From an uncultured bacterium (lineage in GTDB: Bacteria; Omnitrophota; Omnitrophia; Omnitrophales; Abzuiibacteriaceae), in NCBI GenBank assembly GCA_964387845.1, contig CAYLXA010000003.1, positions 64,001-128,000 on the forward strand: a stretch of 64,000 nt of DNA. Direction: 5' to 3'. Made by a program: the position numbers and the translations under genes. The notes beneath the pieces were generated by a model that worked only from the letters and a program-made list of their open reading frames with translations, was not told the DNA's origin and did no database searches. Shown piece by piece: positions 3,552 through 39,584 of this stretch (positions are counted from its first letter, which is position 1; every line of letters starts with the position of its first letter).

Positions 3552-5111
3552 TTAAAGTGTCCTAGCGTACTCATTCCGCTTGAGTTTCCAAACGGGGACG
3601 CCGCAGAAGCGGTCGCCTTCGGGGCAAAAGGGCTTAGTGCCGCCGCGCTCGCGAAGGCCGCAAGGCGGAAGAATGAATTGGGTGATGCGGGGATGGATTT
3701 TGGCGACTTCCTCGACTTCGTCCAAACACATGCGCCAAATTTCTTCCTGTGCTGTGTAACAAAGCCGCGTCGTCCATTTGTGGTGAAGGTTCAAAAGATC
3801 GCCCGATTCTTCGAAGCGAATCGGAAACGCGTTCGGCAGCAAATACATCGCAAATTCGGGCTTCACACCTTGCCCGAGCAAAATATTAATGTTCTGCCAA
3901 ATAACGGACATTGTTTTTACGTATAAATCGTTTGCTTCGGCGCATTCGGCAATTAATGGCGGCGTGATAAAATCAGGAATCTCGGCTTGGAAATGCGAAA
4001 ATAAAATCGGCCGCGAGCCGGGCGTCATGCGGTGGCGCTGGTCTTGAGAGTCAGCCGTATGTGAGAGTTTTTTCATGAATGTGTAATGCGGATGCGAAAG
4101 TGTGCGCGTGAGTTTCGATAAGGAAGACAAATTCAAAGCTTCTTTAAAATACGTATTTTTCTGCGGATCCAAAACCGCCAAAATCGCGTCCGAATCGCTC
4201 AAATCCCGCTTCGTTAAACCCAAAATGCTGCGGACCGACTGTGCCAGCACCGCTTCGGAATTTACTTTATAATCCACAAGTTTCGATGTTTTATTCCCGA
4301 GCCGTTCGTCAAATTCCTTCACAAACGCGTTTTCGGGAACTTCCGTGATGCTCCGCTCGTAAACGGAAAACATTTTGTATTCCGGCGTTTCCGTGAGAGG
4401 AATCGGGTCTTCGATATTTTTAAAGAAAAGCGGATCGATTTCGTTCACAGCATCGATCATTTTTCCGACGACGAGATTTTGTTCGTATGGCGTATCGAAA
4501 ACGTTCTTTAATTTATTGTAACGGTGCAAAGTCAAGCCGCTAATCGTGTGATACAAATGCGCATAAGTCGCGATCGGCAGAATGTAGCGCGCAACTTCCT
4601 GCACTTTTTTCTTGATGGGGCCTTTCCATTTTTCGGGATCTTTCGAACGCACCGGAAAGATTTTAAAATAGTGTTTCTCCGTATCCTTCCACAAAATTTC
4701 AATCAACTTGTGATACACATCCATCTGTAAATTGGCTGTTGCGTGATACGTCTCAAGCAAATGTTCCGGAAGAGGCGGCGTAAAATAAGTGCCGGGCTTT
4801 ACGGCCACATAGCGCTGGCTCACCTGTTCGGAATTATAGAAAGTGTGATTGTGAAGAAAGCTCCAGATAAACTGGCGTGAGATTTTCTCGAGCGTAAATT
4901 GAAATGTGGAGTGCTGAATCGTTGTGTGGTGACCGGCTTGATAAATGGATTCGGCGATTTTGTCGCGCAGAGCAACCGCTTTATCGTCTTTGTCGACTTC
5001 TTCCGTGGAAATCACGCGCGAAGAATAGCAAGTCCGCGCCGTTGCGACCGCGTTATTGAACGGCTCTTTGAAGGAATTGATAAGGGTTACGACAGGCTGT
5101 TCTGAATTCAT
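3552..5111 (-). CDS. tandem ThyX-like (FAD-dependent thymidylate synthase fold) protein
   Basis: First half (GHHTTIQHSTFQF...LHNHTF..SEQVSQRY) aligns to the ThyX core (GHETPFEHIVFTF...RHR..SGRY) but has HNH in place of RHR. Second half (HPHYTFM...QRHRMTPGS) keeps RHR but lacks S-x-RY. Confidence 0.5.
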   Translation of the reverse strand: MNSEQPVVTLINSFKEPFNNAVATARTCYSSRVISTEEVDKDDKAVALRDKIAESIYQAGHHTTIQHSTFQFTLEKISRQFIWSFLHNHTFYNSEQVSQRYVAVKPGTYFTPPLPEHLLETYHATANLQMDVYHKLIEILWKDTEKHYFKIFPVRSKDPEKWKGPIKKKVQEVARYILPIATYAHLYHTISGLTLHRYNKLKNVFDTPYEQNLVVGKMIDAVNEIDPLFFKNIEDPIPLTETPEYKMFSVYERSITEVPENAFVKEFDERLGNKTSKLVDYKVNSEAVLAQSVRSILGLTKRDLSDSDAILAVLDPQKNTYFKEALNLSSLSKLTRTLSHPHYTFMKKLSHTADSQDQRHRMTPGSRPILFSHFQAEIPDFITPPLIAECAEANDLYVKTMSVIWQNINILLGQGVKPEFAMYLLPNAFPIRFEESGDLLNLHHKWTTRLCYTAQEEIWRMCLDEVEEVAKIHPRITQFILPPCGLRERGGTKPFCPEGDRFCGVPVWKLKRNEYARTL

Positions 5112-5265
5112 TGGACGCGTATTATATCAGTATCTGGTATCTCGTATCTAGTATCTAGTCCACCGCACCTCCTCACCCTATCCCTCTCCCCCTCTAAGGG
5201 GGAGAGGGTAAAGGAGAGGGGGTTTGTAAAACGAGATACTAGATACCAGATACTAAATACGGAAG
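5110..5265. repeat. complex palindrome: GTATCT hexamer runs flanking a CCCTCTCCCCC-TCTAA-GGGGGAGAGGG hairpin (repeat family 2)
   Basis: gtatctggtatctcgtatctagtatctag ... agatactagataccagatactaaatac inverted arms around a GC-rich hairpin; it sits directly after the transketolase stop. Confidence 0.6.
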
Positions 5266-6228
5266 TTAGGATTTTTTTCGGGCAAGAACTTTTTCGACTG
5301 CTTTGAGGATACCGGCGGCGGTGAGGCCGTACTTTTCCATCAAACCATCCGGCGATCCGGATTCGGCGTAAGTGTCTTGAACGGCCACATATTCAATTGG
5401 TGTCGGACATTCCTCGGAAAGCACTTTCGCGACCACGCTTCCGAGGCCGCCGTAAATGGAATGTTCTTCTGCCGTCACAACGGCGCCGCATTTTTTGGCT
5501 TGAGCAACGACCAGCTCACGATCAAGCGGCTTAATGGTGTGAATGTCCACGACGGAAGCGTTAATTCCCTTTTCAGCCAATTTGTCCGCCGCAACAAGCG
5601 CTTCAAATACAAGAAGGCCGTTCGCAAAAATCGCGACGCTTGTGCCGTCTTTCAGCAAAACACCTTTTCCGATTTCAAATTTGGACACATCTGAGGCCGA
5701 ATAAACAAGCGGCGCTTTCGGACGCCCTGTGCGCATGAAAACCGGGCCTTTGTGTGCAACCATTTTCGCTGTGAGTCCCGCGGTTTCAAATTCATCGCAA
5801 GGGCCAAGCACAACAAAATTGGGCAAAGAAGCCGCGAGCGCGATATCTTCGATTGATTGCTGCGAAGCGCCGTCTTCGCCGATGGAAATACCGCAATGAG
5901 AACCGACGGCTTTTACATTTAATTCCGGAAATGCGACCGACATTCGAAGTTGGTCGTAAGTTTTACACATCAGAAACGTCGCGAAGCTGCTCATGCACGG
6001 AATAAATCCCGTAGTTGCAAGGCCTGAAGCGATACCCGCCATATTGGCTTCTTGAATGCCGCAATCAAAGAAACGATCCGGATGCGCTTTTGCGAAAACA
6101 TCGGTCTTTGTGGATTTTGCAAGATCGGCGTCCAGGACGATTACATTCGGGTTTGATTTGCCGACTTCGGCGATCGCCTTGCCGTACGCATCACGCGTTG
6201 CGGCGCCCATTTTACGTTCGCGGCTCAT
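5266..6228 (-). CDS. tktB: transketolase, C-terminal (pyrimidine-binding) subunit
   Basis: Transketolase Pyr and C-terminal domains; 4-nt overlap with the upstream N-terminal subunit gene. Confidence 0.85.
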   Translation of the reverse strand: MSRERKMGAATRDAYGKAIAEVGKSNPNVIVLDADLAKSTKTDVFAKAHPDRFFDCGIQEANMAGIASGLATTGFIPCMSSFATFLMCKTYDQLRMSVAFPELNVKAVGSHCGISIGEDGASQQSIEDIALAASLPNFVVLGPCDEFETAGLTAKMVAHKGPVFMRTGRPKAPLVYSASDVSKFEIGKGVLLKDGTSVAIFANGLLVFEALVAADKLAEKGINASVVDIHTIKPLDRELVVAQAKKCGAVVTAEEHSIYGGLGSVVAKVLSEECPTPIEYVAVQDTYAESGSPDGLMEKYGLTAAGILKAVEKVLARKKS

Positions 6229-7070
6229 AACTTCACCGCATTGAGTTCGGCTAAAGCTTTCTTTTCTTCTTCAGCCGTCGGCGCGACACCGTGGAAATGA
6301 TTGTTATTTTCCATAAACGAAACGCCCTTGCCTTTGACCGTATGCGCGATTAAGCAAATGGGTTTGCCTGATATTTTCTTCGCTGATTCCAAAGTTTTCA
6401 CAACTTCTTCCATGTTATGGCCGTCAAATTCGACGACATGCCAATTAAACGAGCGCCATTTGTCCGCGAGCGGTTCCATGTTGAGAATTTTCTCGGTAGA
6501 GTCCGAAAGCTGATATTTGTTGTAATCAATGATCAAAACCAAATGATCGATTTTGTGGTGCCACGCAAACGCAGCGCCTTCCCAGGTTTGGCCCTCGTCC
6601 ATTTCACCGTCCGACATCATGACGTAAGTCCAATAATCTTGCTTGCGAAGTTTTCGCGCAAGTGCCATTCCGATTCCGATCGATAAACCTTGGCCCAGCG
6701 AACCTGTGGATGCTTCAACGCCCGGCACGCGGCGGCGGTCCGGATGGCCCTGCATCGGGCTTCCGAGCTCGCGAAATGTCAAAAGCGTGTCGACTGAAAA
6801 ATATCCCGTACGCGCAAGAGCCGAATATAAAACCGGCGACGCATGGCCTTTGCTTAATATGAAGCGATCGCGGTCCGGCCATTCGGGATTTTTGGAATCA
6901 TGTTTGAGAATATTGAAATAGAGCGCGGTCAAAATATCAGTCGCAGAAAGCGAGCCGCCGGGATGTCCGGAGCCTGCTTTTGCCGTCATGCGGATGATGT
7001 CTTTTCGGATTTCGAGGGCGTGCTTTTTTAAATCCGGAATTGATACTTTTTGCATCTCTTTTGCTTGCAT
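6225..7070 (-). CDS. tktA: transketolase, N-terminal (TPP-binding) subunit
   Basis: GHPGGSLS...DGE..EG TPP-binding motifs; split-transketolase architecture. Confidence 0.85.
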   Translation of the reverse strand: MQAKEMQKVSIPDLKKHALEIRKDIIRMTAKAGSGHPGGSLSATDILTALYFNILKHDSKNPEWPDRDRFILSKGHASPVLYSALARTGYFSVDTLLTFRELGSPMQGHPDRRRVPGVEASTGSLGQGLSIGIGMALARKLRKQDYWTYVMMSDGEMDEGQTWEGAAFAWHHKIDHLVLIIDYNKYQLSDSTEKILNMEPLADKWRSFNWHVVEFDGHNMEEVVKTLESAKKISGKPICLIAHTVKGKGVSFMENNNHFHGVAPTAEEEKKALAELNAVKL

Positions 7071-7120
7071 ATAGTTACAGAAAAATATAAAAACGTTAAA
7101 TTGGCAAAAATTAGGTGATT

Positions 7121-7149
7121 AATATAGCTTTTTTTTATCTGCACGTCAA
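7121..7149 (-). promoter_or_regulatory. sigma70-like promoter for the transketolase operon
   Basis: Read on the minus strand: TTGACG - 17 nt - TATATT, about 50 nt upstream of the tkt N-subunit ATG. Confidence 0.45.
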
Positions 7150-7194
7150 CATTCTGTTTTTCCCTCCTCCACCTCCCCCTTTTCCGGCGCAATA

Positions 7195-7640
7195 ATTTCG
7201 CCGGATCTAAAATATATGCTGCTCTGCTTCGTTGCGCTCCGGCAATTCTAGGCGGAAGGCCTAAACAGAATTGCCGGTGCTCACTGTCCCAATTCTCATT
7301 GATTTTCCCGAAGCGCTTACTAATTGAAAATTGGGACTGCCCTCACTACCGATTAGAATACAATCGGGCTTTAATGAAAGTGATGGGCTGCTAGTTTCAC
7401 TACGAGCCGAGCTGGACTCTCCGTTCAACTAATGCCGCTCCGCAGCATATATTTCGACCCGGCGAAGAAAGTTGTTTCTCAAAGCGCCTTACGGAGCGAG
7501 GATTCAGGTCGAATCATCGCGGAGTCAGGACGAGCACGGCAAATCATTGGCCAGTTCGCCAATAGATTGCCGGCGGAGTGAAGCGGAGAGAAACAACTTT
7601 CTGAGCAATGCATGAATAAGGCTATATATTTTGCGGTGGG
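7195..7640. other. highly structured intergenic region (candidate ncRNA or MITE-like elements)
   Basis: Nested long-range inverted repeats: aaatatatgctgc (7213) pairs with gcagcatatattt (7443); agaaagttgtttctc (7470) pairs with gagaaacaactttct (7600); internal 9-13-bp stems. Confidence 0.3.
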
Positions 7641-7660
7641 GAACAGTATAATAGCGGGCT

Positions 7661-8788
7661 ATGAGCGAACAAAAGCAGGCGATTTTGATTATCGATGACA
7701 GCGAACGCAATGCAGACATGTATTACGCCACGAAATTTATTGCGCCGGATCCTTTCATCTTCATTCAAATCGACGGAAAAAAGACTTTGCTCGCAAGCGA
7801 CCTAGAGCTTGACCGTGCAAAAGATCAATCAATTGCCGATGAAGTGCTTTCCACTTCTGAAATCGCAAAAACCCTGAAAGCAAAAGGTATTGCGCCGAAC
7901 AGCATTGAAATCACCGATTGGGTTTTGAAAAACCGCGGGATTCAGAATATTTTGGTTCCGGCCAGCTTCCCCGTTCAATATGCCGACGCGCTCCGTAAAA
8001 AAAGTTACACGCTTGAATGGAAACGCGATCCTTTTTTTGATGCGCGCGTGATTAAAACAAAAGACGAGATCAAGGCCATCACACAAGCGCTGCGCCATAC
8101 CGAAAATGCGATTCACGCGGCTGTTGAAGTCCTCAAAAAATCCAAAATCAGCGGAAAATATTTGATGTACAAAGGCAAAAAACTGACTTCGGAAGATATT
8201 AAAAAAGTCATTAACGTCAAATTAATGGAAGCGGGCTGCATCGCGGCTCATACAATTATTTCCTGCTTCAATGATTGCGTCGACCCGCACAATCAAGGCT
8301 CGGGGCCTTTATTAGCCAATCAATCGATCATCATGGACGTGTTTCCGCATTCATCCGAAACACGCTATTTCGCGGATATCACACGGACATTCGTGCGCGG
8401 GAAAGCGTCTGATAAATTAAAGCAGATTTATAAGACGGTGAAAGAAGGCCAAGAGATCGCATTCCGCCAAGTGCGAAACGGCGCGGACGGCTCCAAAATT
8501 CATTCCGACATTATGAAATATTTTGAAAGTTTGGGATTCAAAACCGGTGTTCAAGACGGCCGCATGCAGGGATTTTTCCACGGAACGGGCCACGGCGTCG
8601 GAATCGAAATTCACGAGCCGCCGCGGATTTCCGTATCAAAAGACATTCTCAAAACCAACCAAGTCGTGACAGTCGAACCCGGGCTTTATTATTGGAATAC
8701 GGGCGGTGTCCGGCTGGAAGATATGGTTGTCGTTGATGAGAATGGATGTACGAACCTCACCAAATTTCCCAAACAACTTGAAATCTAG
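7661..8788 (+). CDS. pepP: M24 family Xaa-Pro aminopeptidase/dipeptidase
   Basis: Creatinase-like N-terminal domain plus HGTGHGVGIEIHEPP metal-binding motif. Confidence 0.8.
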   Translation: MSEQKQAILIIDDSERNADMYYATKFIAPDPFIFIQIDGKKTLLASDLELDRAKDQSIADEVLSTSEIAKTLKAKGIAPNSIEITDWVLKNRGIQNILVPASFPVQYADALRKKSYTLEWKRDPFFDARVIKTKDEIKAITQALRHTENAIHAAVEVLKKSKISGKYLMYKGKKLTSEDIKKVINVKLMEAGCIAAHTIISCFNDCVDPHNQGSGPLLANQSIIMDVFPHSSETRYFADITRTFVRGKASDKLKQIYKTVKEGQEIAFRQVRNGADGSKIHSDIMKYFESLGFKTGVQDGRMQGFFHGTGHGVGIEIHEPPRISVSKDILKTNQVVTVEPGLYYWNTGGVRLEDMVVVDENGCTNLTKFPKQLEI

Positions 8789-10731: not shown

Positions 10732-13700
10732 TTACGCCGCTTTTCCAAGTACGGCGCGGCTAAAGAGCGTATGCATGAGTGAGCTGATAAATTCCGAGCT
10801 CGGATCGATCACGTCGCCCAACGAACGGAAATTGAACGAATCATTATGAGCGATTAGAAGCTGCGCAGCCTCAACGGCTCCCGGTCGGCCCAAAACTTTT
10901 GGAATATCACGCCGCGTGAGTTTTGAGAATAAATCGTGCTCGCCAATGGCCACAATCCGAGTCGTATCGCCTTTTGCATTGAGTTCATGTTTTAAGCGGT
11001 CGATTAAAATATTGTACGCTTGATCCGCCGAAAGTTCGCGGCCGACACTCAAACGCTCGCGCGTATAAAGCTGCAAGCGCGATCTTTGCCCGCTTTGCTT
11101 GCCAAAAATGTCGGCGTTTGGAAATAACTCTTCAACAGCCCTTTCGGCAACAAATGTGTTATCAAATTCGGAAGCGACAACCGAAAATTCGATTTTTGAA
11201 CCGGGATTTGCACTCATATCCGCCAAAATCGCTTCGCGCAATTCCGAACGGTTCTTCAATTCCTCAAACGAGATTACAATATTCCCCTTCACGTTTGACG
11301 GAATGCTTGCTTGATTCGCTTCACGCCTCAATTCAGACCGGGATTCTTGAGTTTCACCAAAAACCGCCTTAAGTCGATCCAAATATTGTGTCCGGTAAGC
11401 GCCCTCCGGAAAGTCTTCCAACTCGTCGGGATGGCTGCGGGCGGCGTCTGCTTCCTGTTCGACCTCATCGCCAACCCGTTCATCCTCTAAATATTCTTTG
11501 ATCACCTTCGTGGCCGCTTCAAGCTGTGCTTGGGTAATTCCCAATCGTTTAGGTGCTTCCAAATAAATTGCGATCGGTGTTTCATATATTGTGAAAAGCG
11601 TGGTGGCGGTTATCCGGCTTGAAAAATGATTCGCCGGATTATTTTCTTCACCAATCCAATAACGGACACCTGCCTCGATCAAAGGCAGTGTCAAGCCGAG
11701 CAATATTCGGCTTGGGCCTTCATGCAAGCCGGCAGCGTGATTTAAAACTGCGTGTTCAAGATGAAAAGAACTGTTGTCCAAACGGCTTTCAAAATGATCT
11801 TTAAATTCATTCCGGATATGCTCGATCAATGCCTCATCGCTTGTGCGCAATTCAGAGCGGGATTCGTCCTTTCGTACAAGAGCGCTCTTCCAGCCTCTTG
11901 ATTTTTGGCCGTCAGCGCCAACCGCCATCAGCATGTTGCCAAGTTCGTACGTTTGTAAATTGGTCCTGCCAAATACAGCATTTGTTAAAATTTTTACTTG
12001 CACACTTTTATCTTCGATTTCTGAAATTACTTTTAAGATTGGATTAGCATTGGTTAAAGCATCTTTAATGATCCACCTCGCTAAATATTTTGGAAACTTT
12101 AAGAAAAATTCTTCTTGTTCCAGAAAAGTCAAATCAGAAAATTTTTCATCCAAAATTCTGATCAATTCATCCGTTGTTTTGACCTCGCCAAATCTTGGCC
12201 AAGCCGGGAAGTTTTCCTGAATAAATTCTTGTATTTTTAAAACTCTTTGTGCATCGTTAGAAAATTTTTGTCCTTTTGTTGCTTCTGAGATTAACTGATT
12301 TGTCAGAAGGCGTGGATTTTCTATTTGATATAAATTCGAAATTTGAATTCTTTCATCTTTGGATAATTCCGATATTTTCTGCCGAAGACGGCGTTCTAAA
12401 TCCATATCTTTTTCAGGATCAATAAAGGGCAATTCGTAGAATGAGGCGTCTGCTAAATCAGGATGATGACGGGTTAAATAAGTCAGTAAAATATCTTGGA
12501 TGCTTCTGTTTTCCAAAGGTACGTTGCCATCGCCAAATTCCCGCACTAAGAGTTCTTTTTTATTTGAATCACCAGATATTAATAATCTATTCGAGGCATC
12601 AATAAAAACTTCCGGAATAATTCCGGGGAATGCGAGAACAATCTCTCGTCCTTGCCGGAAACTATTCGGCTGAAATTTTTCCTGTGCCCAATCCGGAATA
12701 TCAGTTCTTCCCCAAAGTCCGCCTGCTTCACCCATAAAATCCCGTTTTAATTCTCTTTCTAAAGACTCAAATGAAACACCAGCGCGCAAAAGCCAGCTTA
12801 ATTTGGTCCGCGCTTTCGAGAAAGTCATGTGATAAGGAATATTAATGGCGCCTGATTGCGAAACATTTGAAACAACAGGGATTTTCTTCCTTTTCAAACT
12901 TTGAATAGTAGCCCTGATATATTCGATCTCGGGGTTCTTTGAAAAATCGCCCTGGATAACAAGTCCTGCCCGAACGCCGGCTTGCTCTGCGTGCCGCTCG
13001 ATTCGATTGCCGGCTTGAAAGAGCACCAGCGCAGGCGTTGTTTCATCTATAAGCAAATGCTCAACATAACCAAATTCTTCATTTTTATGAAACTTTGGTT
13101 GTTTTTCTAGATTGGCCAATTTGCTGCTTACTGTTTGTAAGAAATCCATATCGAAACTGATATTTCCCTTGGAATCAACGGCGCCGATTGCTTTTCCATA
13201 ACTAGCAAAAAGACTCCCTTTTGAAGACGAGTCCGTTCTGATCTTCGAAATAAGACTTCCGAGATAGATTTGACTGTCAATGACAACATAGACCAAATTT
13301 GGAATATCTGTACGTTTTGCAACTTCTTCAGCTGCTTTCAAATTTAATATCTTTTCCTTTTCATTAACCGTGGAAGATCCTGTTAAAACAATTCGTGTCG
13401 GTAATGATCCATCAAATTCAAGCGAAAGAACCAGGCCTGTTTCTGCCAAGGTGTCGGTTCCGTGCGTGAGGATAATTCCACCCATTTCTCTTTGAGAAAC
13501 CTTGATCTCTTCGGCTAATGTCGTCTTCCTCGAGATTTCATCTTTGATATGATCAATTATTTTTTCCCATTCTTTCGGGCCAATATTCGTACTATCCGGA
13601 TTTTTATCGAAAACACTTTTGTAAAAAACAGTATTCTTTAAATGCGTTAATAAAACTCTTACCGCATCAACAGTCTTCCGCGCAAATTCGCCGATCATAT

Positions 13701-16700
13701 CAATCGTTCCGCCGGCATTTAAGATTGAAACGCCGGACAATTCTTTCTGAAGTTCTGCAATACTTTGCCCGCTGCGCAATTCGGATCTCACGTTTTCTTC
13801 AACCGGCTCTTCGGCATTCGGCTCATCGAGCTGTTTCAAGACGCGGTTTGTGGTAGCAATCGAATCTTCAAAAACGCCCAGCTCTTCCTTCGCTTTTTTC
13901 AATTCTAATAATTCCCTTGCCTGATCTTCAGGAAGTTCGACAATCCGGTCTTTGATTTCCAAAATCTTTTCAAGTCTGTCCGGACTAACGCCCAGCGCTT
14001 TCCTTAAAAATGCGGAATCTTTTAAATAATCAAAGAGCTTTTCGACCGCTTTGGCCATATCAAAAGGAGGAAGGATTTTGATGTATTGATCAATGTCGGG
14101 TGTTTTGTTTTCCCATGCATCTTTCAAGATCGTCACATTCTGGACTATTTTTTTCTTCGTTCCCTTTCCTCCCTTCACCGGAGCATCCACAATCTTGGGT
14201 GCCAATTCGATGCCGGTTAAACGAGCTATTTCCGGCATCCTGGATTCTTTGTTATAAAGCTCTTTTCTAACCCGGTAAGGCAGCCGCATAACCAGATCTG
14301 CATGAATACGAGCTCTTAATAGTGCTTTATACTCAGGGCTTCCGAATTCAATCGGTTTTTCGGGTTCAGGCTCTTGCGTGACAGAGGAATTTTCGAATGA
14401 ATCGACTAATGGGGTTTTTCCTATGATCGCCCGGGGTATCTCCAAACGCCTATTCGTTACCGCTGCCTGGCGAGCGTTTTTAGGTAAAAATTTATCGGCG
14501 AAATGCGGCGGATACGGATCCGCATTAAGTTCTAGAACCGTTTCGCGCCTAATCCCATAAATTAAATCTGAAGTCACATTCAATATTCTCGCCAACTTGC
14601 CCACTAATCTAGTAACTTCGGTGAATTTGACTTGTTTACTCCCGGAAAGCACTGCGTGAACATGCCCATAGGTTTCTTGTATTTGATTAAAAAGCTCGCT
14701 GGTAGTGATATGAGTAATGCCTCTTGCTTCAACAATGATTCTAATTCTGTCCCAATATGTCAAACTTGGATCAAACAAAGATTCGATAATGGCTGGCGTA
14801 AGAGCATAAATCGTCCATTGATCAACCGGAGATGCTCTTTCAATTTCCGAGACAAATGGTGGTTGCTGTTCTGGTTGGGGCGCTTCGGAAGCAGTTTCTG
14901 GAGTACTATCAATGTTTTTTAGCATTTCCGACAATCTAAGCGGCAACATTTCTTCTGCAGTTTCTTCTATCGTACCCGTCAGGGGTTGTTCTTCTGTTTC
15001 TGAGGGTTTAGCTTCAGTCAAAACTTCTTGTTTTACCAACTCAAGTTCTTGCTCGGTAGTCAAACCCAATCGTATGGAAAACTGTTCAAAGAGCATGATT
15101 TCTGGCCCTAAGATCCTTCTGATTTCTTTACCCTCTTCGCTTTCAGGAGTGTGGAGCAATTGTGCAAACTCCAAAGTATCTACTAACACTTCCCGGCTGG
15201 CAATACGCGGCCCCCCAAATGCGGGGTTGGTCGGCGGTACAAACAATAAACCTCGGTCAATCATATGCTGCAATGCTTCACCCATACGGGCTCCGCCGAT
15301 CGTGGTACCGAGCCGCGGATGCCAAACGACGTCCTGCGATTGGCCTTCCGATTTCGTATAAATTTCTTCCCAAAGAATCAATGCAATCAAGAGAGGCGCC
15401 ATTATCCTGCCTTTGTTCGGCCCGCTTTTGTATTTGAAAAGAACGTCGGGATCCTTCAGTAAAGTATCGGGAAGCAGATATTCTTTCACTGAAAATTTCA
15501 AATATTCTTTCAATGCGGCTTGATCCACGGAAAGATTTTCAAACGGTTGGTCTGGATTTCTGTTTAAGATTGCTTCTTCAATTTTTTTGCGAACCTCCGC
15601 ACCCATTTCATGATCAACTTCGAGCTGATTTTTGCTGTTAAACAATGATTCAAAATCCAACCCCACATGATTCGTGTATTCAGACATAGCTTCTACTTGC
15701 CATGGCTCTAGCTTTTCTGAAAGCCATTCGTGCACTTGCCCTACTCGAATGGTAACGTCCCGGTATTTTTCATCAGAATAAATTTGGTCAACTAATTTGC
15801 TAATTTCTTGAGGGTCTTCTTCTTTGATTGTCTTGAAAAATAAGTTTTCAAGATCGGCATCTCCCGTCAAATGATGAAGCAGCATATACCGAAGAATTGT
15901 TTTTTGCGTATTGCCTGCAAACCGCATTCCTCTCACAGTATCTGAATCCCTCATCTTAGTAATCGCTTTCATGGAGGAGCGCCGGATATTACCATGCATG
16001 CGCTCGACTGCCTGGCGATTAAGTCCGAAAATCAAATAAAGATCGATGATCATAAGCTGGGTTTCAACTGGAAGAGCTCCGCTTTGCTCGAAGCTTCTCT
16101 CAACAGCTTTATCAATCAATCCAATTTGACCTTCAATCAACAAATGTGTACGCCGGCTCGAATCCATCATCGATTTCAAAAGCTTCAATCGGTGGCCTTC
16201 GGCTAACGCTAAATCACGAAATTCGATCTGAAGCGTTGTGCTGCGATTCATTTCTATCTGGCGTGAAAAAACTTTGTCCAGTTTTTCAAACGCTTTTTCC
16301 AAGTCTATCTTTGCCTGGCCGATCAACTCTTCCGCAAGCTCCGGTTCGACTTGATCCACCAAGTGATCGGCTTGGTTTAGTTTTGCTTTTGCCTGGCCTA
16401 AATAATATTTAAACCATTGCTTATAAACTTGGGTTGAAATGTCTTCATAGATAGAACGTAAACGCCAATAAGCTTCTCCCCATTTGCTGGATGTTTGGCT
16501 CTCTTTAAATGAATCATCGTCCAAGAATGTTTTTACGGTTACGGCAACCTTCATCATGGTTTCGTAAAATAAATTAATTCTTGCTTGTTGAATGGAAATA
16601 TCCGATGCGCCGGATAGTGACTTGAAGTCTTTGTGCAAACGCCCGTAAACAGGAGATGTTCTGCTTTCAAAAAATATAGACTCTTTATTTTTAATATCCA

Positions 16701-19700
16701 AAAGAGAAAGCAAAACATCCAACTTTTTTAAGACGGTGTTGAGATGTCTGTTTTGAAGAATGGGCGGGATTCTGGCCGTTAAAGCATGGGCGCCTTCCAA
16801 CCATGAATAAAACGCATTCCGCTCATCAGAAGTTCCCATTAAATCGATAAATTCATCTAATTCCTTTTTTAACTTTACCAAGCTATCAAAGTGGCGAACC
16901 AGGTCGGAATTCTTCAAATCCGAAAGAAATGCATCTAGAAAAGCAGATGATTGAGACGCTATTTTCAACTGCTCTTCAAGTTTCGCCCGGCTTTCGGCAG
17001 TATTTTCGGAGGCCAATGCAGTCAAGGCAGTTTGGCGTAAAGCAGAAATGGATTCTACCTCGATAAACTTTTTGGCCAACTCGTCAATTTTCTGGATTCT
17101 CTGAATAATTTTTTCACTGCGGGTTTTCCGAACAAAAGAAACGGTTTCATTTTCATTTGATTTAACAATCAAATTTAAAATTAACGGCAGGGCTTCCTTT
17201 CTGAAGAATTTGCCCACGATTTTCCGGATCTCATCCAGTTTTTCTGACCGTCCTTTTTCCGGATTATTGGCAAGTTGATTAATGCTCAAAATTCCTTCGT
17301 CAACTTCAAGAAGCCACGAAAATACAGTTTCTATTTCACTTGCGGTGCCTAGATCAGAAATAAATTTTTCAAACCGGCTTTGGATTTCTCTCAGTTTGTG
17401 ATAAGCATCCCTGTTCTCACTTTCGGTAAGACCGTCAAATATTTTTTTCAGAATTTCAAAAGATTTTCTTGCTTCCGATCCAATATTTTTAAGATCTTCA
17501 AACCCTGCAAACGCCGTTTCGATGTCGAATTCCCCGTCACTTGAAGCAGGAATTAATTTGGATAAAACAAATGAGTCTAGATCGGAAAACCATGCGTCTG
17601 AAAAAAATGCTGCATATTGGGGCGCTGCGGCCGCATAAGTAGTTTTGCTGCGTGTGATTTGAGACAGTAATAAATTCCCGCGGCTATTCGCTGATTTCCA
17701 GCTGTTCATATTCATGCTTTCAAGCGAACGCAATTCTGATTTCTTGCTTTCAGCCGCATTCAACGTTTCGGCAATGAACGTTTTCATTACGCGATAGACA
17801 TATTCGGTTTGCTCTTGGGTAGGTTCGCTATTAAGAAAACGATCATAGAATTTGGCGGGATCCGAACCGCGCGGGTAAGCCTGTGAATAAGACAAAAGCC
17901 AGGCGCCAATAATAGATTGTCTAAACGTTGGAAGAGGAAGTTTTTTTAATTGTACGCCGCGGAGGCCGATGTTGACGAAAATAGCCGGCACATTTGCATC
18001 AAATTCTTTCCAACGGCGAAGGCGATGAATCGGCGCAAACCGGTCAAGCTCGCCCTTCCAAGGAATATAATCAATCTTCAAATCCTGCCCGTCGACCGTA
18101 ATTTTTTTCAAATCTTTGAGCAATTCCATAGCTTTAGAAGTGGCAATAATGCGGATCGGAGCGCGCGTTTCGCGAGGGCGTCTTTCCATAAACGTGATAT
18201 GCCAATCCATCATAAACGGAATATCGGGAAATTTTTGATGCAGGACCTGCATGAATTTTTCTCCGATTGGCGCCGGAATAGATTCAAAATTAGGCTGTGA
18301 ATCCGGTTTAATCTCGGCTATCAATTCTTCCGAAAATGCAGCCAACATTTTTTTGAATAACTTGTCCCGCTCTCCATGAAATTCGAGACGTTTTTGAAAA
18401 TCTGCGGCGCCTGCCGACATTTTTCGTTTCGTGCTCAAGCGCCGCTTTTTTCTTTCAGAAGGCCAATCTTTTTCTGCGTCATTTGTGATACGCTTTTGAA
18501 CAATATGCAGCAAGCGACTATTGATTTCATTACCGATTAAACCTTCCCGATCGGAAGCTTTGCTGAAATGAAAGTCGATCAAATTTAAACTGCTCTGGTC
18601 ATCACTTGTTTCAATTGCACGATCAATATCTTCTATCACTTTTTCCAATGTTTCAACAAACCACCGTTCTTTATCTTTGGAATATCGCTTTGACGCGGCC
18701 CCGTGCTCAAAAATTCTTCTCCCTTCTCTTCTATAAGCTTCGAGCATCCGCATAACACCCCGGTAAATCAAGTTGGTCTCGCCGACCGGCGTAAAAGACG
18801 ATCTCCACCTGCCGATTGCAGCATACCCGCCAAATTCTTGTTTCAAATCACGAATCATTGCTGCCGTGCGCTCCAAAGGATAATCACGATCAGTCAAGAT
18901 AAGCGGTGCTGTTCCTTCGGAGGATTTGACCGATTCCAGCAATTGAATTGCAGAACCAATGCTTTCCGGGAACAAATCTTCCGGAGCAAGCAGGCCCAGC
19001 TCAAACATGATTTGATTAAAAATGGTGCGCTGAGGGCCTCTCAGGCCTTTTATCCATGGATCTTTTTCGTAAATGGGCCGGATGCTTTTTGCGGTGATAT
19101 TGCCGTCTTCATCGCGATATTGATTGAATATATCGTTTTCGATTAAATATTCGATCGTGTTGTTTAAATAATCATACTGACGTAGCGTATCGGTCCATAA
19201 CAATAGAAGAAAAACAAGTTCGGGAGCCGGTTTTTGAAAGGGCATGAGCTGCTCGATTAATTCGTCGGATTCAAGAACTTTTCGGTAATAATCGACTAAA
19301 TTTTCAAATTTGGGATCTTTTATTTTATATTCTCCGCGATCAAACTTGCGAATAACTCTCCTAAGCACTATTCGAACGTCGTGCTTGAGCAGGGCTTCAT
19401 ACGCATACAACACACGTGATATTTTGTTGTCATAATCCCACGACGGATTTTTAGCAAAATCACTCTCGATCGCGATAAGGGTCCTAGCAATCAAACTTGC
19501 TGCATACATATTAGACCCCGGCAGCGGGTTGCCATACATGAGATCGGTTACATTTGGATGGACAATGTTTCCTGCGCGATCTGTCTCATCATTGGAAACA
19601 ACTTCATTGGGGAACACCTGATCCATAATAGCTTCACGGCTTCGAGTCCTCCGGTATTCTTCCCGTGCCCATTCTAAACGTTTTTTAAGTTGCCACCCTT

Positions 19701-22700
19701 TCGACCCTATTCCCAAAACAGACAACAACATCGCAATTGCATAATCCCGATAACCGACGTTTCCGACCATTTCAAACCGCAGCCTTGGATTGATTGCACG
19801 ATTCAGCCGGCGTACTACTTTTCGAAGAGAATGTTCATTTGCGTATTGAAACGCCGGAATTTTAAGTGCGATCGTGCTTGGAAGGCCCGCCTTCTCTTTA
19901 ATAGCACGCTCGTAATGATTTTCTTGCTCGTTTTCCGCTAATCCTGATAAAGCATGAAATATTTTCCTTTCGGCAGAATCCTCAGACTCCAAATAAGCAT
20001 GCCAAGCACGAGATTCAAATCGCCCCCACAAGTTTCCAAGTCCATGAAATTGGCTTTGAAATGCAAAAACCTGGCTTGCGCTCGCCATTTTATTTAGATG
20101 ATAACTGGCTTCGACAAGTTGACGATAAATATCGGGCAGGCCTTTTGAAGGCGTCATTTTGTACCGTTCTAGAGTTTCAAATGCGGCGTTCTTATGATAA
20201 TCAAAATAGAATTCGTGAATGCTTATGATTAACTCTCTGGTTTTTTCTTTAAAAACATCAATGGCGTGCGATTTCCCAAGCCCCATTGCGAGATCATAAA
20301 ACGATTGGAAGTACCGCGATAACCCCTCTGAGACTGCAAACCGGAGTCTCGCGTCGGTCTTGGATTTTTCGAGCAACGTATTTGTTATATCGCGAACAGG
20401 TTCAAAGAACACTTCCAACTTTGATTCGACGTTACTCTTTTTATTTCTTTTTGTACTGCCCTTTTTGATGTTGGCTGTCGCCAAACTAATTAAAAATTCT
20501 TGTGCGGTCTTTTGAGAAAAAGAATTGATGATGTGTTCCCACAAAAATATTGGTACTTTGATTTTAGATTTTGCACTCTGCACTAAATCTAAAAACATCC
20601 TTTCGGTCATTCTTTTATGATTGAAATTTTTTACGGGCAATACACGCACGCCGGGAATCGACTGAATTAAGAAATAGCTTTCTCTTTGGTCCTTATCTCC
20701 GCTTGTTTCTAACTTGCGGCTCGTAATGAGTTTGACTCTCGCAATAATTTTTAAGTCTGTTTGTTCTCCTCCGCGTGCAATCAAGAAACCATCTTCACGG
20801 CTTGGATTTAGTTTTATATCAAATTTTAAATCGTTTTGATTCTTTTCGCCGATGATCTGTTGGATTTTGTCCAAATCTTTCTGCCGATGCCATGCGGATC
20901 TGATTCCGACAAGAGAACCGCCCACCGATTCAACTCGCACTCTTGATATTTGTTTAGGGACAGATTCAACACGAATATGCATTGATTCGGTATTGCCATC
21001 CTCGTCAAAAACAACTGTAAATGTGCGACCGTGGCCAACTGAAACTAACTGCCGACCCACAAATCTTTTGGTACCAATCCGCTTCGCTTGAGAGATCAAT
21101 GCATCATCCGATCTGAGTTCAGACTTTTTTGTGGCCTGTCTTATTTCAAAATACTGCTGATAAAGTTCCTGAAAACTCGGCGTTTCCTGGATTTCAAGTT
21201 CGATTTCTCTAGCCATGTCCACTGCAGTGTCATTCAGAATATTTTCGTATGCACCAGCATCATAAGCTTTCTGTGAATCCTTACCGATTTCGTCCAGCCA
21301 TTTCCTCTCTGCCGGAATCCAGTCTTTATAATCATAAAAAATACTTTCGACATCCTCATAGGCCGTGAAGCGGATTAATTGTTTAAGAATAGCTAAAACC
21401 GCAGGGCTTACCGCAACGCTAATTGGAACATTGGCGTATTTACCTTTCATGTAGATTAAAAACAGCATGAACCGCCGCCAGCCAGCCATTTCGCCGCAGA
21501 TACTGACTTCCAACCCTGCCGCGCTCGCATGCTCAATGATTGTTTCGATCTTTTCAAGAAATGTGGAAAGCAATTCTGTGTACAATCTTCCGCCATATTC
21601 ACGGTCCCGGCCGAATGTTTGTTGCAATAAATCATTGGTGCCGATAGAAATAAAATCGACGTATTTCTTCTGTGCGATCACCGGAAGATTTTCAATGGCT
21701 TTGTTGGTTTCGATCATAATTCCGAACGGAATTTTGATCCGGAAGCGATTAAGATCGTGACGAAATTTTTCTAACTCCTGATCAAAGATAGTCCGGACAA
21801 ATATTACGTCATCCTCAGTTTGAACCATCGGTACAAATACTTTGACCGCAGATTCTCTTCCGGTTTCTCCTTCGGCGTGAAAATGCTCTGCAGCCATAAT
21901 GCTCGCGCGAATTGCCGCTCGAATTTGAGCTCTCAAGATCGGTTCGCCTTCCGTAGGATCCCTGTAAAGATCGAACCCGATTTTTGTATTCGTTTCTGAA
22001 ATGGCTGAAACAGGCTTGTCCAGCTGACGGTCTAACGTTCTTACCGCAAATGCGCCACGTAAGATAATCCTGCCCTGAGATAATATTTGAGTAAGATCGT
22101 CTTCATATTCTTTTATATTTGCTTCCCAGGATTCGTGGCGGTAGAAATGCGTAGGGAAATTGACTTCGGTTCGATAGAGCCGCACACCATCCGTATCTGC
22201 GGAAAGCTCTTGAATATGTTCAAGCGCATCCGCACTTCCGCTAACTTCCATCAACAGTGAAGCAACGCTGTCTTTCTTTGCAAACACAGGTTCTAGTGCG
22301 AGGGTTTTTGCCAATTGCAAATACGCTTCTTCCTTGACGATTTTCTGTTCATATTCGGCAGCATCTTTTTGTGAAGGATTGGCATGCAGCATTCCGTTTT
22401 CCCCGTCCGCATAAATGATTTGCCCTGACTTGATATCTGCAAACTTACCTAGTTTGGCCTTGAGCGCGGTAAGAACTAAGATCCCGTAATTAGCGCCGAC
22501 AATAACCCAATGTTCGGTGGGAGATCCAAACTCGGCTACAACCGCACCCAAATTTGGGTAAGCTTTTTTTAGACTTAAGAGAGTCGGCGCATTCATCGCT
22601 CCTGCCAAATACGGCTGTTCTTTTGAGACTTTTAAAATAACCACCAAATGATCAACTTTATCCGTCGTAAATTGCTGATCCGACACCAATTGCCGCGCCA

Positions 22701-25700
22701 TTTTTTCGTTTAGAATCAAAACTGCGTCTTTTAAAAGAACTAAAATATTTAGCAGCGTTTTCTCCTGAAGATCGGATGTGTCTTCAGAACTCATCTTGGT
22801 GCCGATATCCAAAATCAACTTTTGATAAGCATATTGGAGCGCAACATCAGGATACACATTTTTTGTATTGATTAACCAGCTGGTTTCTTCTTGAAATCGA
22901 TCAAGAAGCTCTTGAAATGAATACTTATCCGGCATGTTGTCGACAGGCGCTTGATCAACTAATTGGTCAGCCGCTGATTGAAATGCGCTTGCTATTTGAT
23001 CGTTGTATTCTTTGATTTTCTCTTGATAGAGTTCCTCGGACATTCCTTCCATTTTAAAAGACTCGCCATAGCTCAAAAAACTCATCATCCGGTAGAGCGT
23101 GGAAAGGATTTCCCTATTTCGAGCCTTGATCTGTTTTTCTTCATCCGTGCCCTCGGTTCCCTTGAGAGATTCGATGGCATTATGGATATCTTTAACAATT
23201 CTAGGAATTGGCTGGCCGGCTTTTTCAAGCTGTGTATAAGCATTGGGGTGCGCATACAACTTAAACGCATCGAAATATGAGATTTTTTTGTCCTTCAAAG
23301 ATTCCATCACTAATTTTATTGAATCGGTGTTATATTTAAAAAATTGCCATGTGATTTCTAATGCTTTTGCATCACGCAGACGCCCTTTTTGCTTTAGATC
23401 CCGAATTCTAATTTGAAAATCGAAATTAAAAATATCTAGAATCGCTTTAAAATGTTGCACATCACGTTCGGCAGCTTCAGGGCTAAGAATGGCAGGCTGT
23501 TTAAATTTGCTGCTAAATTTTTCCAAACTCTCTCCTAGCGCTCTGCTCGACCACAAATAGTAAATCTGAAAACCAACGCTATTCACTTTTGATTTAATTT
23601 CTTCTTCAAGAAGATGATCCGCTCTTTTCCCTTCGCTTTCTATTTTTTCCAGAACAGAATCTTTCAATTCGTCTAAAACTTGCAGTAAATTTTTGTTCGA
23701 TTGGTCTTCTTCCAAAATCATCCTGTCTATCTTTTCTGAAAATTTTACCTTTTCGATTCTTATCTTTTCTTGAACATCTGGTTCTTCATCCAAATTCGAT
23801 CTCAACGAATAAGCAGCTGTAAAAAAGTCGTCTGCCTGGAAAAGCATCGTGGTGCCTCGAAATACACGCCGGGCCTGATTTTTATTGCCCTGCATCAGAA
23901 CGGTTCGAAGTTCTGATCTTTTTTCCGATTCGCCTTCGGCATCACTTGTTTTGCTTTTGGATTTTTTCTCTTCGATCATTTCTTCAATGAGATCCAGCAG
24001 ATCTGTTAGTTGAGGGGGCAAAACTCCTTCGATTGCGTCCATGCTCAGCCCTGTATTCGCAATCACTCTTGCGATTATTTCGAGAGCGCTGTTTCCTGTA
24101 GAAACCGGATTTGCATTTATAATTGCCGCTATTTCCTCGTCATTTACTGATTCTTCTTTCGGGTCAAAATAAGAAGCGATTCCGGATTGCGCAGCAGGTT
24201 TTTCGGATTTGTTTTCTGCTGCTTGAGGTTGGGTTTGCGGCTCTGCCGGCTGTGCTGATTTGGCTTTTTCAATGACGAGTTGAAAAAAAGCGTCTCTCTG
24301 GTTTTGCTTTATCGATTTGAATTGATCATTTATAAACTTAGCGAAGGTCGATCCTGCTCTTAAGGGAAATTTATTCACGCTCGGATTCCCTTGTTTATAT
24401 TCGCTTGCCAATGCGCCACTCTTGTTAGCGTCTGTGATAATTGTCCGCTCAATTTCTGTTAGGTTGCCTTCCTTCCCCTCGGCAAGTTTCACAACGCCGG
24501 AAAAAAATGCTTCCACGTTTGCCTGCTGCGTCATATCTGCCGGAACTCCCGCCGCCCAATCGATCAATTTTTGGATTTGCGAATTGACAGCCCGCAATTC
24601 AGAACGATCGTTCTTCTCAGATTGTTGAGAAGGTTGTATAGAAACTGCATACGAGGCCAATTTCGAATCATCAAAATATGCCCTATCAATAAACTTTTCA
24701 AAAGTGGCTTGCCAACCGTCAGGGTTGTAGTAATACTCGGGCAACGATTTTCCTGATTTTGCTTGCACTTCGGATGCAAACCTGAGCAAAGCTTGTTGGA
24801 TAGGAACAAGAAACCGGTTATCAAAATTCTCCGCCGCTGTCCCCGGATTATTTTTGTTGATCAACGCACGCGTATATCCCAATTGCAGCGTCATTAGTTT
24901 CAAAATGTATCTTGATTTTTTCCAGTTCTTATCATTTGCGGCATCACGAAATCTCGATGAATCATAATGAAGGCGCGTTAATGTTGCCGCAAGTGATTCC
25001 GGATATTGATCCCTGGAGACATAGCGGACTTTAAGCCAATCAGATGCAACATCATCTAAAAATACCGAAACAACTCTGTGGGGAGTTTGTTCAATAACAA
25101 CCGACTCTGGATCCTTGAAACCAACCACCCCATTCTCATAAGCAAGATGGCCGACTTCGTGATACACATGATAATCGCTTACCCATTCAAATAACCGTGC
25201 CCTGTCTTCCTTATTTCCAATCTCACCGTGGTGGATAATTTGATGCTGGAGCATTGCCATTCTGAGTGAAATTCGGAGTCTGCGATAAGTTTCGTCATAA
25301 ATTAACGAAAATCCTGTATTGTCAGCCATAGATTCCGAATCTTTCATTTCAGCCGAAAAATTGATAGAGGGTGTCTCTAAAAATTTCTTCAACTCTGCCG
25401 GTAACTTTTCATAACTCTCAGAGGTTCGGCTTATCATCAAAAACGAATCCAAAATCTCTTCCATACTTAAATTGAGCTTCTTGAGTTCGCGATAAATCAT
25501 GATTAGCATAGAAAAAATATTTTGGCTTAATTTGTCAGGAAATTTACTTGTTGAAGATGGGATATAAAGGAATGATGATTGACCGCCTCGATAGGCCGAA
25601 ATAATAACATCAATTGGCCTTGCAAAAAGCCATCTTGAAAAGTAAATAAGCATCACTTGTGTAAGTTTTTTGATTTGAGACAGGTTGGGAAATTCTGGTT

Positions 25701-37833: not shown

Positions 37834-37844
37834 CGGAAGATACC

Positions 37845-37900
37845 GTCATTCTGCCTCCGGCCTTTCAGGCCGATAGGCCCGGAGAGAGCGAAGCGAAGAA
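37845..37900. repeat. repeat family 2 copy (CTCCGGCC-TTTCA-GGCCGATAGGCCCGGAG)
   Basis: Near-identical to the core at 39598-39632; both are followed by gcgaagcgaa. Confidence 0.5.
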
Positions 37901-38084
37901 TCTCAGCTCAATTTATTTCTCTCCGCTTCCCTGCGCGCGTTGATTTTTAGCCGAGTGGGCTAAACAAAAATCATCGTGCTCGGCCCACGTCAAAAATTTG
38001 AGCCATTCAAATTTTTGCCGTGATGGCGCTCCGAGAAACAAATTGATCTTCGATTCTTCGTCAGTCTGACACCTTGTTATAGTG

Positions 38085-38627
38085 TTAATCGGTGTTTTTC
38101 AACTGAACAAATTCTTTCAAAAAGTCGGCAAGTTCGGCGTAAAAATCGGAAAAAAGCCCCGAGTATAACATGATGATTCTAACGTCCATGCCATCGTGAT
38201 TACCGAAAGCGCCAATCGATGCCTTTTTGCTTATGCAATATAAAGGGTTATTTAATGTAGATTTATCATTAACTTCTTTTGACCTCTTGAGTGAGTCATT
38301 CCATACCTCCATGTATTCAATCATTCTTATGTGATGCACGGCTATCGCGGCTGGAAATTGTTCCTTGGCAAATCTCTGATTTCTTAACCTACTATTTAAA
38401 TTGGAGCGAAATGTCTTAATAACAGATTCAAACTGACTTGGGAAAATCTCTTTAATAGCTAAATAAATTCCATACACATACAGGTGCGATAACTCTTCAA
38501 AGAATCTTCTCTTATCTATTTCAAAATCAATTTTAATAGATTTCTGCTCTTTAATTCGGCTTAGTAATGCTTCTATTAGGAAGTCAACTAATTCTGGTTT
38601 TGAATATTTATCACTGTCATTGGACAT
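38085..38627 (-). CDS. hypothetical protein in an AT-rich islet
   Basis: 180 aa, no recognised motifs; local composition is more AT-rich than flanking genes. Confidence 0.4.
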   Translation of the reverse strand: MSNDSDKYSKPELVDFLIEALLSRIKEQKSIKIDFEIDKRRFFEELSHLYVYGIYLAIKEIFPSQFESVIKTFRSNLNSRLRNQRFAKEQFPAAIAVHHIRMIEYMEVWNDSLKRSKEVNDKSTLNNPLYCISKKASIGAFGNHDGMDVRIIMLYSGLFSDFYAELADFLKEFVQLKNTD

Positions 38628-38751
38628 GATGATTAGCCATGATTTTACGCTTTGTTTACCGGATACCCTCCGGTTGGGAGAGATTAGCTCCTTAAAAATG
38701 ATGCATTTTATGCCTCAAATAAGGAAGTGTCTAGGGGAACGAAATTTGAAT

Positions 38752-39030: not shown

Positions 39031-39138
39031 GAAAATACTTTCTAGTGGTAACCCCGCGTCGCCAAAAAGCGGCTCATGGGGCGACTATCTCCCTAGATAA
39101 ATAGCAACTTGAGTCTTCATAGGTAGGAGATAGTCGTC

Positions 39139-39408: not shown

Positions 39409-39584
39409 TCTCCTTTTGTATGCATTCCTTACTTCCTTACAAAAGGATAGCAGACGTACTACCAGAAATCAAGATTCAAGATAGGTTTTATCTGTTCATG
39501 AGCCGGTTACTAACGTGGAAGGCTTGGGTGGAGATTTGTATGACGATTATGATATTGGATTATTATTTTATGTCAATATAAATT

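Follow-up and report, generated by a model that had tools for sequence, protein, structure and literature searches.

What kind of element occupies the spacer of about 450 nt that separates two divergently transcribed genes in the DNA of an uncultured Omnitrophota bacterium? In the window, a 64-kb stretch analysed at its full length, the spacer lies between a split transketolase (6225-7070 and 5266-6228, both on the minus strand) and the gene of an M24 Xaa-Pro aminopeptidase (pepP, 7661-8788, plus strand). A first-pass annotation, made from the sequence alone, saw two consecutive stem-closed domains here and proposed either one sizeable structured noncoding RNA or two tandem insertions resembling miniature inverted-repeat transposable elements (MITEs). 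The spacer is made up of two diverged members of one family whose 5′ ends adjoin, one of type B (minus strand) and one of type A (plus strand). The reading favoured here, at about even confidence, is that the block is an insertion of two members of an uncatalogued, non-autonomous, structure-dependent interspersed repeat family found in some Omnitrophota.

The inverted repeats of the spacer are real and far beyond chance. A repeat search found two perfect pairs, one of 13 nt (AAATATATGCTGC with GCAGCATATATTT) enclosing 219 bp and one of 15 nt (AGAAAGTTGTTTCTC with GAGAAACAACTTTCT) enclosing 107 bp. These are the long stems that had been proposed to close the two domains, displaced by 1-12 nt from where they were first placed (coordinates of all features are collected in Table 1). 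Among 1000 dinucleotide shuffles of 7195-7640, a single one had a perfect inverted repeat as long as 13 nt, and none had one of 15 nt. Both strands fold better than any shuffle, with z-scores of -6.7 (plus) and -9.5 (minus). Of the internal hairpins first described, two are borne out; the third, ggcaaatcattgg/ccaatagattgcc, exists in imperfect form, with three mismatches at its centre. The polypyrimidine tract said to border the element was also found. ARAGORN detected no tRNA or tmRNA.

Perfect repeats of 13 and 15 bp around 219- and 107-bp segments between divergent genes are also what an invertible DNA switch (inverton) flanking a promoter segment would present. Such a switch is extremely unlikely here. 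An inverton needs neither the covarying internal helices nor the conserved junctions described below, copies of the element also lie within operons, no recombinase is nearby, and the orientation is the same in two independent assemblies.

The first clue to a family came from a blastn comparison of the spacer with the window, which gave weak matches to another intergenic region, at about 37.9 kb. When 7440-7640 (plus) is aligned with 37840-38084 (minus), three blocks are identical, TTGTTTCTCnnAGCGCC, CGAGCACG and GAAGCGGAGAGAAA, and the hairpins between them are unrelated in sequence while having the same size and position. The second domain of the spacer is a type A copy, its first domain an expanded type B copy, and the region near 37.9 kb holds a third copy, of type A, which lies on the margin of a 2.07-kb block missing in relatives. 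Covariance models were built from four copies (R1) and from 13 copies (R2); a model scan with filters off finds exactly three copies in the window. The antisense strand of the type A copy in the spacer scores just 11.5-15.8 bits. In the type B copy, three hairpins stand where type A has a single one. The proposal of one sizeable structured RNA does not survive this comparison, as the domains are separate modules on opposite strands, each a member of a multi-copy family. That of tandem MITE-like insertions holds in part: the domains are inserted repeat elements, but they are head-to-head inverted copies and not tandem ones.

A pattern drawn from the shared blocks led to two metagenome contigs, L007 and L008. 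A first strict pattern, TTGTTTCTCNNAGCGCC..GAAGCGGAGAGAAA, gave no matches among genome contigs. A relaxed pattern gave 27 loci among GTDB genomes, of which 22 were rejected by the covariance model as chance matches in GC-rich genomes and five were true, four from the metagenome-assembled genome (MAG) CAYJWM01 and one from the Omnitrophota MAG JACQQP01. There are 15 copies in total (14 aligned and one duplicate view), and they sit in the window, in CAYJWM01 (unclassified), in JACQQP01 and in the two metagenome contigs. CAYJWM01 has seven of them within the approximately 55 kb examined. The element is 137-270 nt in size and has no conserved open reading frame (ORF). Copies are 68-81% identical within one genome as against 45-69% across genomes. 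Head-to-head A/B doublets with the units 0-12 nt apart occur in three cases (the window, L007 and L025), and in a fourth head-to-head pair, at L017/L044, the units are 440 nt apart; the A and B partners of doublets show no mutual complementarity.

The family is previously uncatalogued, strongly covarying, lineage-restricted, multi-copy and intergenic. The Rfam scan that had been suggested as a check on a structured RNA found no Rfam 15 family overlapping the elements, whether in the whole window at the gathering threshold, in 6500-8500 at E<=1, or in L031 and L008 at E<=10. Viral contigs, phage records and plasmid records held no match, and literature on Omnitrophota RNA motifs, noncoding RNA, inverted repeats and three-way-junction intergenic repeats yielded no description of it. 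Extension of the window's own contig by about 4 kb (L043) added no further copy, and no partner B copy is present, with filters off, at the far end of the roughly 2-kb island beside the third copy (site L2).

Structural modelling shows a unit that is predicted to fold strand-specifically into a closing stem, an internal loop, a short helix and a three-way junction with two hairpins. The closing stem, P1, has 14-25 bp. Its inner UUUCUC/GAGAAA is conserved, generally with cAAGnn/nnCUUG outside, and the conserved inner 6-13 bp correspond to cAAGnnrUUUCUC/GAGAAAynnCUUG; the outer part is variable yet complementary, and covaries. P1 termini differ from copy to copy, and outer P1 varies even among near-identical copies. 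Insertion into pre-existing palindromes was considered as the origin of this variable outer part and rejected: covarying pairs are found between the conserved CAAG/CTTG and UUUCUC/GAGAAA boxes, and among related B copies the P1 stems can be aligned, with compensatory changes.

P1 is followed by a purine-rich 3x3 internal loop (nnA/GGA), a short helix of 2-3 bp, GC(G)/(C)GC, and a compact three-way junction with hardly any unpaired residues, G on one side and GAA on the other. Hairpin P2 starts CCUU...rrGG and has a hypervariable stem capped by UUC..GAA. Hairpin P3 has the 5′ side yC-GA-GC-A-CG and the 3′ side CG-C-GC-GSA-Gr, which give a conserved 2x3 loop and an A/C mismatch, and it extends into a hairpin carrying a conserved 5′ bulge, UUGYU. 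The conserved junction and bulge nucleotides are AGCGCC, YGAGCACG, the UUGYU bulge and CGCGCGCAG-GAAGCGGA; stem sequences vary freely. Block spacing in the first four type A copies is 42-44 and 42-47 nt. The corresponding type B blocks are GAGCGGC and GU(A/C)(G/C)CG(G/A)A, and type B tolerates inserted sequence in P2. Comparison by eye with consensus sequences of hammerhead, twister and k-turn gave no fit (CUGANGA is missing, and a k-turn register breaks P1), in agreement with Rfam.

Covariation is strong. Among 13 copies, 96.3% of cells are in standard pairs compared with 71% after column shuffles and 38-49% with slid partners, and 34 of the 43 pairs have changes on both sides, with the caution that the alignment was fitted to the model and the copies are related, so that their independence is overstated, and that the sample is small and was gathered with patterns built from the family. 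There is also an asymmetry of strands. The 14 aligned copies have 536 Watson-Crick pairs, 19 G-U and 5 A-C (p 0.007), the modelled strand folds better than its complement by 3.3 kcal/mol on average (p 0.04), and model scores are 111-143 bits in sense versus 11-21 bits in antisense. Variable helices, conserved junction and bulge nucleotides and strand asymmetry together are the pattern that would be expected of a functional folded single strand.

It may be asked whether these are simply DNA palindromes with no sequence-specific function, in which template switching during replication (quasipalindrome correction) keeps the arms complementary, and which pile up as nested junk between promoters. 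The window does have other nested palindromes or hairpin repeats, at 5130-5250, 37854-37884 and 39600-39655, and both the variation of outer P1 between near-identical copies and a piece of pepP coding DNA made palindromic at 7183-7207 fit such a process. Template correction, however, would erase asymmetry. All copies have kept the 2x3 loop of P3, the UUGYU bulge and the A/C mismatch, which argues against mere upkeep by template switching. Junction sequences are conserved across genomes whose elements share just 45-60% identity, and the strand asymmetry in G-U pairs and model scores speaks against it as well. Simple palindromes are therefore an improbable explanation.

Filled and empty sites were compared next to the same genes. 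The spacer is identical in L001, an independent assembly of the same organism. It is 590 nt long in the window versus 137 nt in L002, the closest relative found (aminopeptidase 92% identical); the alignment of the two is collinear to about position 7162 and resumes at 7643, with 28 nt in L002 against about 480 nt in the window. More distant relatives have spacers of 288 nt (L003, L004) and 147 nt (L006) with no trace of the element. The site of the third copy is empty in L036 (92% amino acid identity), where the gene for a HAD hydrolase abuts a gene of 148 amino acids and the whole 2.07-kb block is missing, and in L037 and L040 a P-II gene takes the place of this block. An A copy in L044, together with a 104-amino acid ORF, is missing in the relative L045 (at least 90% identical), where a rearranged B-like remnant is left. 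No copy was found in about 125 kb of relatives with 71-92% protein identity. According to these alignments, this lineage gained two inverted members between the transketolase and aminopeptidase promoters.

All copies are intergenic, and many lie within housekeeping operons. The gene contexts are unrelated to one another, and orientation to transcription is mixed. These contexts bear on the possibility that the spacer is a single structured RNA of about 450 nt, or a riboswitch-like leader, that regulates the aminopeptidase or transketolase genes. The very low folding energy of both strands and the fact that each module points to the gene it faces would suit it. It is scarcely credible nonetheless: the two modules are on opposite strands and upstream of conserved core promoters, the block is absent in four relatives, the module stands beside unrelated genes elsewhere, and there is no Rfam match. 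Nor do the copies share a riboswitch-type position, in sense in the 5′ untranslated region of functionally related genes. Probably there is no dedicated role here for either flanking gene beyond the provision of a longer non-transcribed spacer.

If the spacer block does represent two members of a non-autonomous repeat family, the family would spread, or be homogenised, within genomes as a non-autonomous element. It might be recognised as a folded single strand, either single-stranded DNA or RNA, by a factor encoded elsewhere, and copies would be carried passively in host transcripts, as are ERIC and BOX. The head-to-head doublet would put one functional-sense copy on each strand.

Several observations weigh against the insertion of mobile repeats. 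No direct repeats that could be target-site duplications flank P1 at eight type A copies, and no transposase, reverse transcriptase or integrase is found among the checked window ORFs or adjoining any copy. As target-site duplications, conserved termini and an adjacent mobility gene are missing, the argument for mobility is one of presence or absence and copy number only. The type A copies of the window are just 56% identical to each other and hence are not recent transpositions. Unpaired nucleotides seem to be under strong purifying selection, which is sooner expected of an RNA that serves the host than of selfish DNA. In addition, the sample comprises only five genomes or contigs, most of which came to light through a pattern that had been built from the family. 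One XerC/D-like integrase is encoded 8 kb from a copy in L044.

The selection on unpaired nucleotides favours the main rival explanation, a structured RNA that serves the host. It could be a multi-copy cis module, such as a protein- or nuclease-binding site that shapes the processing or stability of operon mRNAs, or a new self-cleaving or other catalytic RNA, with the long closing stem presenting the junction core. Near-invariant nucleotides at the junction, internal loop and bulge alongside covarying helices, the constant spacing of the blocks and the excess of G-U over A-C pairs are consistent with this, and five to six of the eight type A copies are in the sense of the surrounding operon. 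Doublets would supply one sense copy whichever strand is transcribed. Against it, five copies (L031, L025-A, L042-B, L007-B and L017-B) are antisense to the only plausible transcripts, and the pair in the window is upstream of both core promoters. No terminator or conserved promoter accompanies the element, the upstream flanks of type A copies showing just inconsistent AT-rich hexamers. The element is also patchy among close relatives and has no tie to any gene function. A host RNA is a real but doubtful possibility.

Perhaps the element is something new altogether, a functional structured nucleic acid specific to Omnitrophota. It might be a new small ribozyme or a ribonucleoprotein scaffold with the conserved three-way-junction core AGCGCC / YGAGCACG / CGCGCGCAG-GAAGCGGA as active or binding site; or it might be the cis-acting substrate of an undescribed structure-guided mobilisation that favours head-to-head doublets and moves branched hairpins without target duplications. 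This proposal is speculative and rather unlikely.

A retron-like msr-msd template RNA was also weighed, in which the closing stem would be the a1/a2 repeats and the AGC inside the stem would bear the branching G. AGC is a retron context, and the layout is alike, a terminal inverted repeat enclosing an RNA of several hairpins and AGC coming directly after the stem, ahead of the hairpins. Retrons differ, however, in that the element is present in many copies per genome, within operons and in both orientations, and no reverse transcriptase adjoins any of the 15 copies or is found among the checked window ORFs. A retron is thus very improbable.

Returning to the interspersed repeat family, its relation to MITEs needs to be stated with care. 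It is short, non-coding and multi-copy (three copies in 64 kb of the window; seven in about 55 kb of CAYJWM01). The terminal inverted repeats proposed at the outset exist as closing stems, of which the inner 6-13 bp are kept, while the actual ends differ among copies and covary. The further copies proposed as a check are present in the window and in other genomes, whereas target-site duplications were not found at the eight type A copies examined. No parent autonomous element with a transposase was seen in the checked window ORFs or the examined loci. Membership in the MITEs is not established, given the lack of target-site duplications, the varying termini and the lack of any known parent element.

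In behaviour, the closest analogues appear to be the ERIC, BOX, Correia and REPIN repeats. ERIC/IRU, pneumococcal BOX and the Correia elements of Neisseria are, like the element, about 100-250 nt long, non-coding, multi-copy and intergenic, often in operons and in either orientation. They too form stable stem-loops closed by terminal complementarity and are polymorphic for presence or absence among close relatives. They differ in being known by an overall sequence consensus and conserved terminal repeats, with TA duplications in Correia and RUP. In the element the helices covary and are unconstrained in sequence, conservation is confined to nucleotides of junctions, loops and bulges, and there is a three-way junction in place of one long hairpin.

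REP/REPIN-RAYT systems, with their IS200/IS605-like Y1 transposases, and palindromes derived from IS200/IS605 share with the family recurrent inverted doublets and the tolerance of G-T/G-U wobbles on one strand. Recognition of the structure of one strand, and a non-autonomous state with the enzyme encoded elsewhere, are further likenesses that are proposed for the element. REPs, however, are simple hairpins of 20-40 nt that carry a conserved tetranucleotide of GTAG type, and the two partners of a REPIN are complementary; the element has branched units of 137-270 nt, and no RAYT or TnpA gene is linked to them in the genome fragments at hand.

Integron attC sites also put structure over sequence, with a stem that has an unpaired spacer, extrahelical features, a variable and sometimes branched terminal structure, and strand-specific function. 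The R″/R′ pair of attC, RYYYAAC...GTTRRRY, is absent from the element, whose arms read GTTTCTC...GAGAAAC. The cassette array and the integrase are missing as well, and the flanks are syntenic core or housekeeping genes. Candidate structured noncoding RNAs that comparative genomics has brought to light, such as HEARO/omega RNA, GOLLD and ROOL, resemble the family in strong covariation, conserved junction nucleotides, several copies per genome, patchiness and possible links to mobile DNA. The element differs from them in having no IscB- or TnpB-type associated gene and no Rfam 15 match, and it is much smaller than GOLLD and ROOL.

Table 1. Coordinates and settings of the repeat copies, their parts and other features (positions are those of the window unless a locus is named; "to" marks features read downwards on the minus strand)
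Feature	Position or setting	Strand	Remarks
Type B copy	7197-7466	minus	40.9 bits, E 5e-8 (4-copy model, match spanning 7223-7344); 65.4 bits, E 1e-15
Type B P1	7197-7222/7442-7466		25 pairs when extended; perfect 13-nt core 7210-7222/7442-7454
Type B 5′ block	7441 to 7434	minus	GGAGCGGC
Type B core and P3	7283 to 7233	minus	GUGAGCAC and hairpin with UUGUU bulge
Type B 3′ block	7230 to 7223	minus	GAAGCAGA
Internal hairpin	7233-7249/7267-7283		
Internal hairpin	7286-7298/7325-7337		
Type A copy	7466-7602	plus	130 bits, E 4e-30 (4-copy model); 111 bits (13-copy model)
Type A P1	7466-7480/7588-7602		perfect 15-nt inverted repeat
Type A 5′ block	7481-7488	plus	AAAGCGCC
Type A P2	~7487-7529	plus	hairpin
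Type A P3	~7529-7578	plus	hairpin
Type A core	7531-7538	plus	CGAGCACG
Type A 3′ block	7580-7593	plus	GAAGCGGAGAGAAA
Third copy, type A	37908-38046	minus	151 bits (4-copy model); 143 bits (13-copy model)
Left border of inserted block	7162-7207		polypyrimidine tract 7162-7183 and small hairpin CCGGCG..CGCCGG 7184-7205; absent from L002
Right border of extra sequence	7603-7642		up to conserved CAGTATAAT; from alignment with L002
Promoter-like site of transketolase operon	7149 to 7121	minus	TTGACG-17-TATATT; 10 of 12 consensus positions
TATAAT 8 nt 5′ of aminopeptidase ATG	7647-7663	plus	leaderless-like layout
A-B pair, L025	nuoH / nuoI		
A copy, L023	sdhC / sdhA		
A copy, L031	aconitase (acn) / sdhC	antisense	
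A copy, L042	metG / tatD		
B copy, L042	ispDF / gltX	antisense	
B-A pair, L007	FGGY kinase / glutaredoxin		
Copies, L017/L044	among heptosyltransferase genes		
ThyX	3552-5111		519 amino acids
Nested palindrome	5130-5250		between thyX and the transketolase C-terminal gene
Giant ORF	10732-27243		5503 amino acids (16.5 kb)
2.07-kb block	37834-39908		between HAD hydrolase gene and gene of 148 amino acids; bears the third copy
Terminal 9-nt inverted repeat of block	37842-37850/39901-39909		ACCGTCATT/AATGACGGT
Hairpin repeat, direct copies	37854-37884 and 39600-39629		CTCCGGsCC...GGCCGATAGGsCCGGAG; near block ends
ORF of 180 amino acids	38085-38627		no Pfam match
ORF of 92 amino acids	38752-39030		RelE/ParE toxin-like by eye; no Pfam match
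MazE/AbrB antitoxin	39139-39408		PF04014
ORF of 104 amino acids	L017 6341-6655; L044 11324-11632		between A and B copies

At the left border of the inserted block, the small hairpin overlaps outer P1 of the type B copy. With its immediate surroundings (7183-7207) it resembles a piece of aminopeptidase coding DNA, AAATTTATTGCGCCGGATC (7734-7751), its arms matching at 15 of 16 and 12 of 13 positions, and it looks like a short local duplication that turned palindromic. Part of the right border, from about 7616 to 7642, may be ancestral spacer.

The promoter-like site assigned at the outset to the transketolase operon is present; it lies outside the inserted block and is kept in the closest relative, L002. 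On the other side, a TATAAT stands 7-8 nt 5′ of the aminopeptidase ATG, with no Shine-Dalgarno sequence, in all four genomes compared (the window, L002, L003 and L006), which suggests that the aminopeptidase mRNA is a conserved leaderless transcript. Homologues of the aminopeptidase come nearly all from Candidatus Omnitrophota. The giant ORF of the window is in keeping with Omnitrophota, and syntenic counterparts of 5389-6402 amino acids occur in the relatives L004, L006 and L037, with HAD, PEP-utilizer, metallo-beta-lactamase and other domains. ThyX appears to be a tandem-domain fusion, its Thy1 domain being matched in two stretches (profile length 191), and a protein of comparable size occurs in the relative L006.

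Other repeats are present in the window. In the 2.07-kb block, the second direct copy of the hairpin repeat is followed by a CCCTCTCCC-AAA-GGGAGAGGG hairpin. The nested palindrome beside thyX has GTATCT-rich inverted repeats around a pyrimidine-rich hairpin, CACCTCCTCACCCTATCCCTCTCCCCCT..AGGGGGAGAGGG. This inner hairpin is 86-90% identical to one in CAYJWM01 (L025 3119-3160), which makes it a second repeat family shared by the two. A resemblance also exists between the left half of this palindrome and the polypyrimidine tract that borders the spacer block on its left.

By eye, the 104-amino acid ORF of L017 and L044 contains hydrophobic stretches, and its two CPKCG motifs suggest a zinc ribbon. 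Beside it (L017 6716-6746) lies an inverted 18-nt piece of the type A 5′ block, GTTTCTCGAAGCGCCTCG, with its own hairpin. The absence from L045 of the segment that carries this ORF hints at recombination at the conserved block.

The repeats mislead gene annotation, in that gene callers and ORF finders report several copies as small ORFs that are spurious. Copies have been called as genes of 62-63 amino acids at L044 11041-11232 and L045 10164-10352, and at L007 1112-1693 an ORF of 193 amino acids is an 82-amino acid glutaredoxin gene extended through a repeat copy.

The Omnitrophota are uncultured, ultra-small and probably host-dependent bacteria. To our knowledge, essentially nothing has been described of their non-coding repertoire. 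For an abundant structured element of this group that Rfam does not list, there are now a covariance model, a well-defined consensus and documented comparisons of filled with empty sites. As a selfish repeat, the element would be a marker of genome dynamics and a possible handle for strain typing in Omnitrophota, and it would be unusual in being branched and selected for its structure while having none of the ends of a conventional transposon. The invariant nucleotides of the junction would, in the case of a functional RNA, make it a candidate for a new class of ribozyme or protein-binding RNA.

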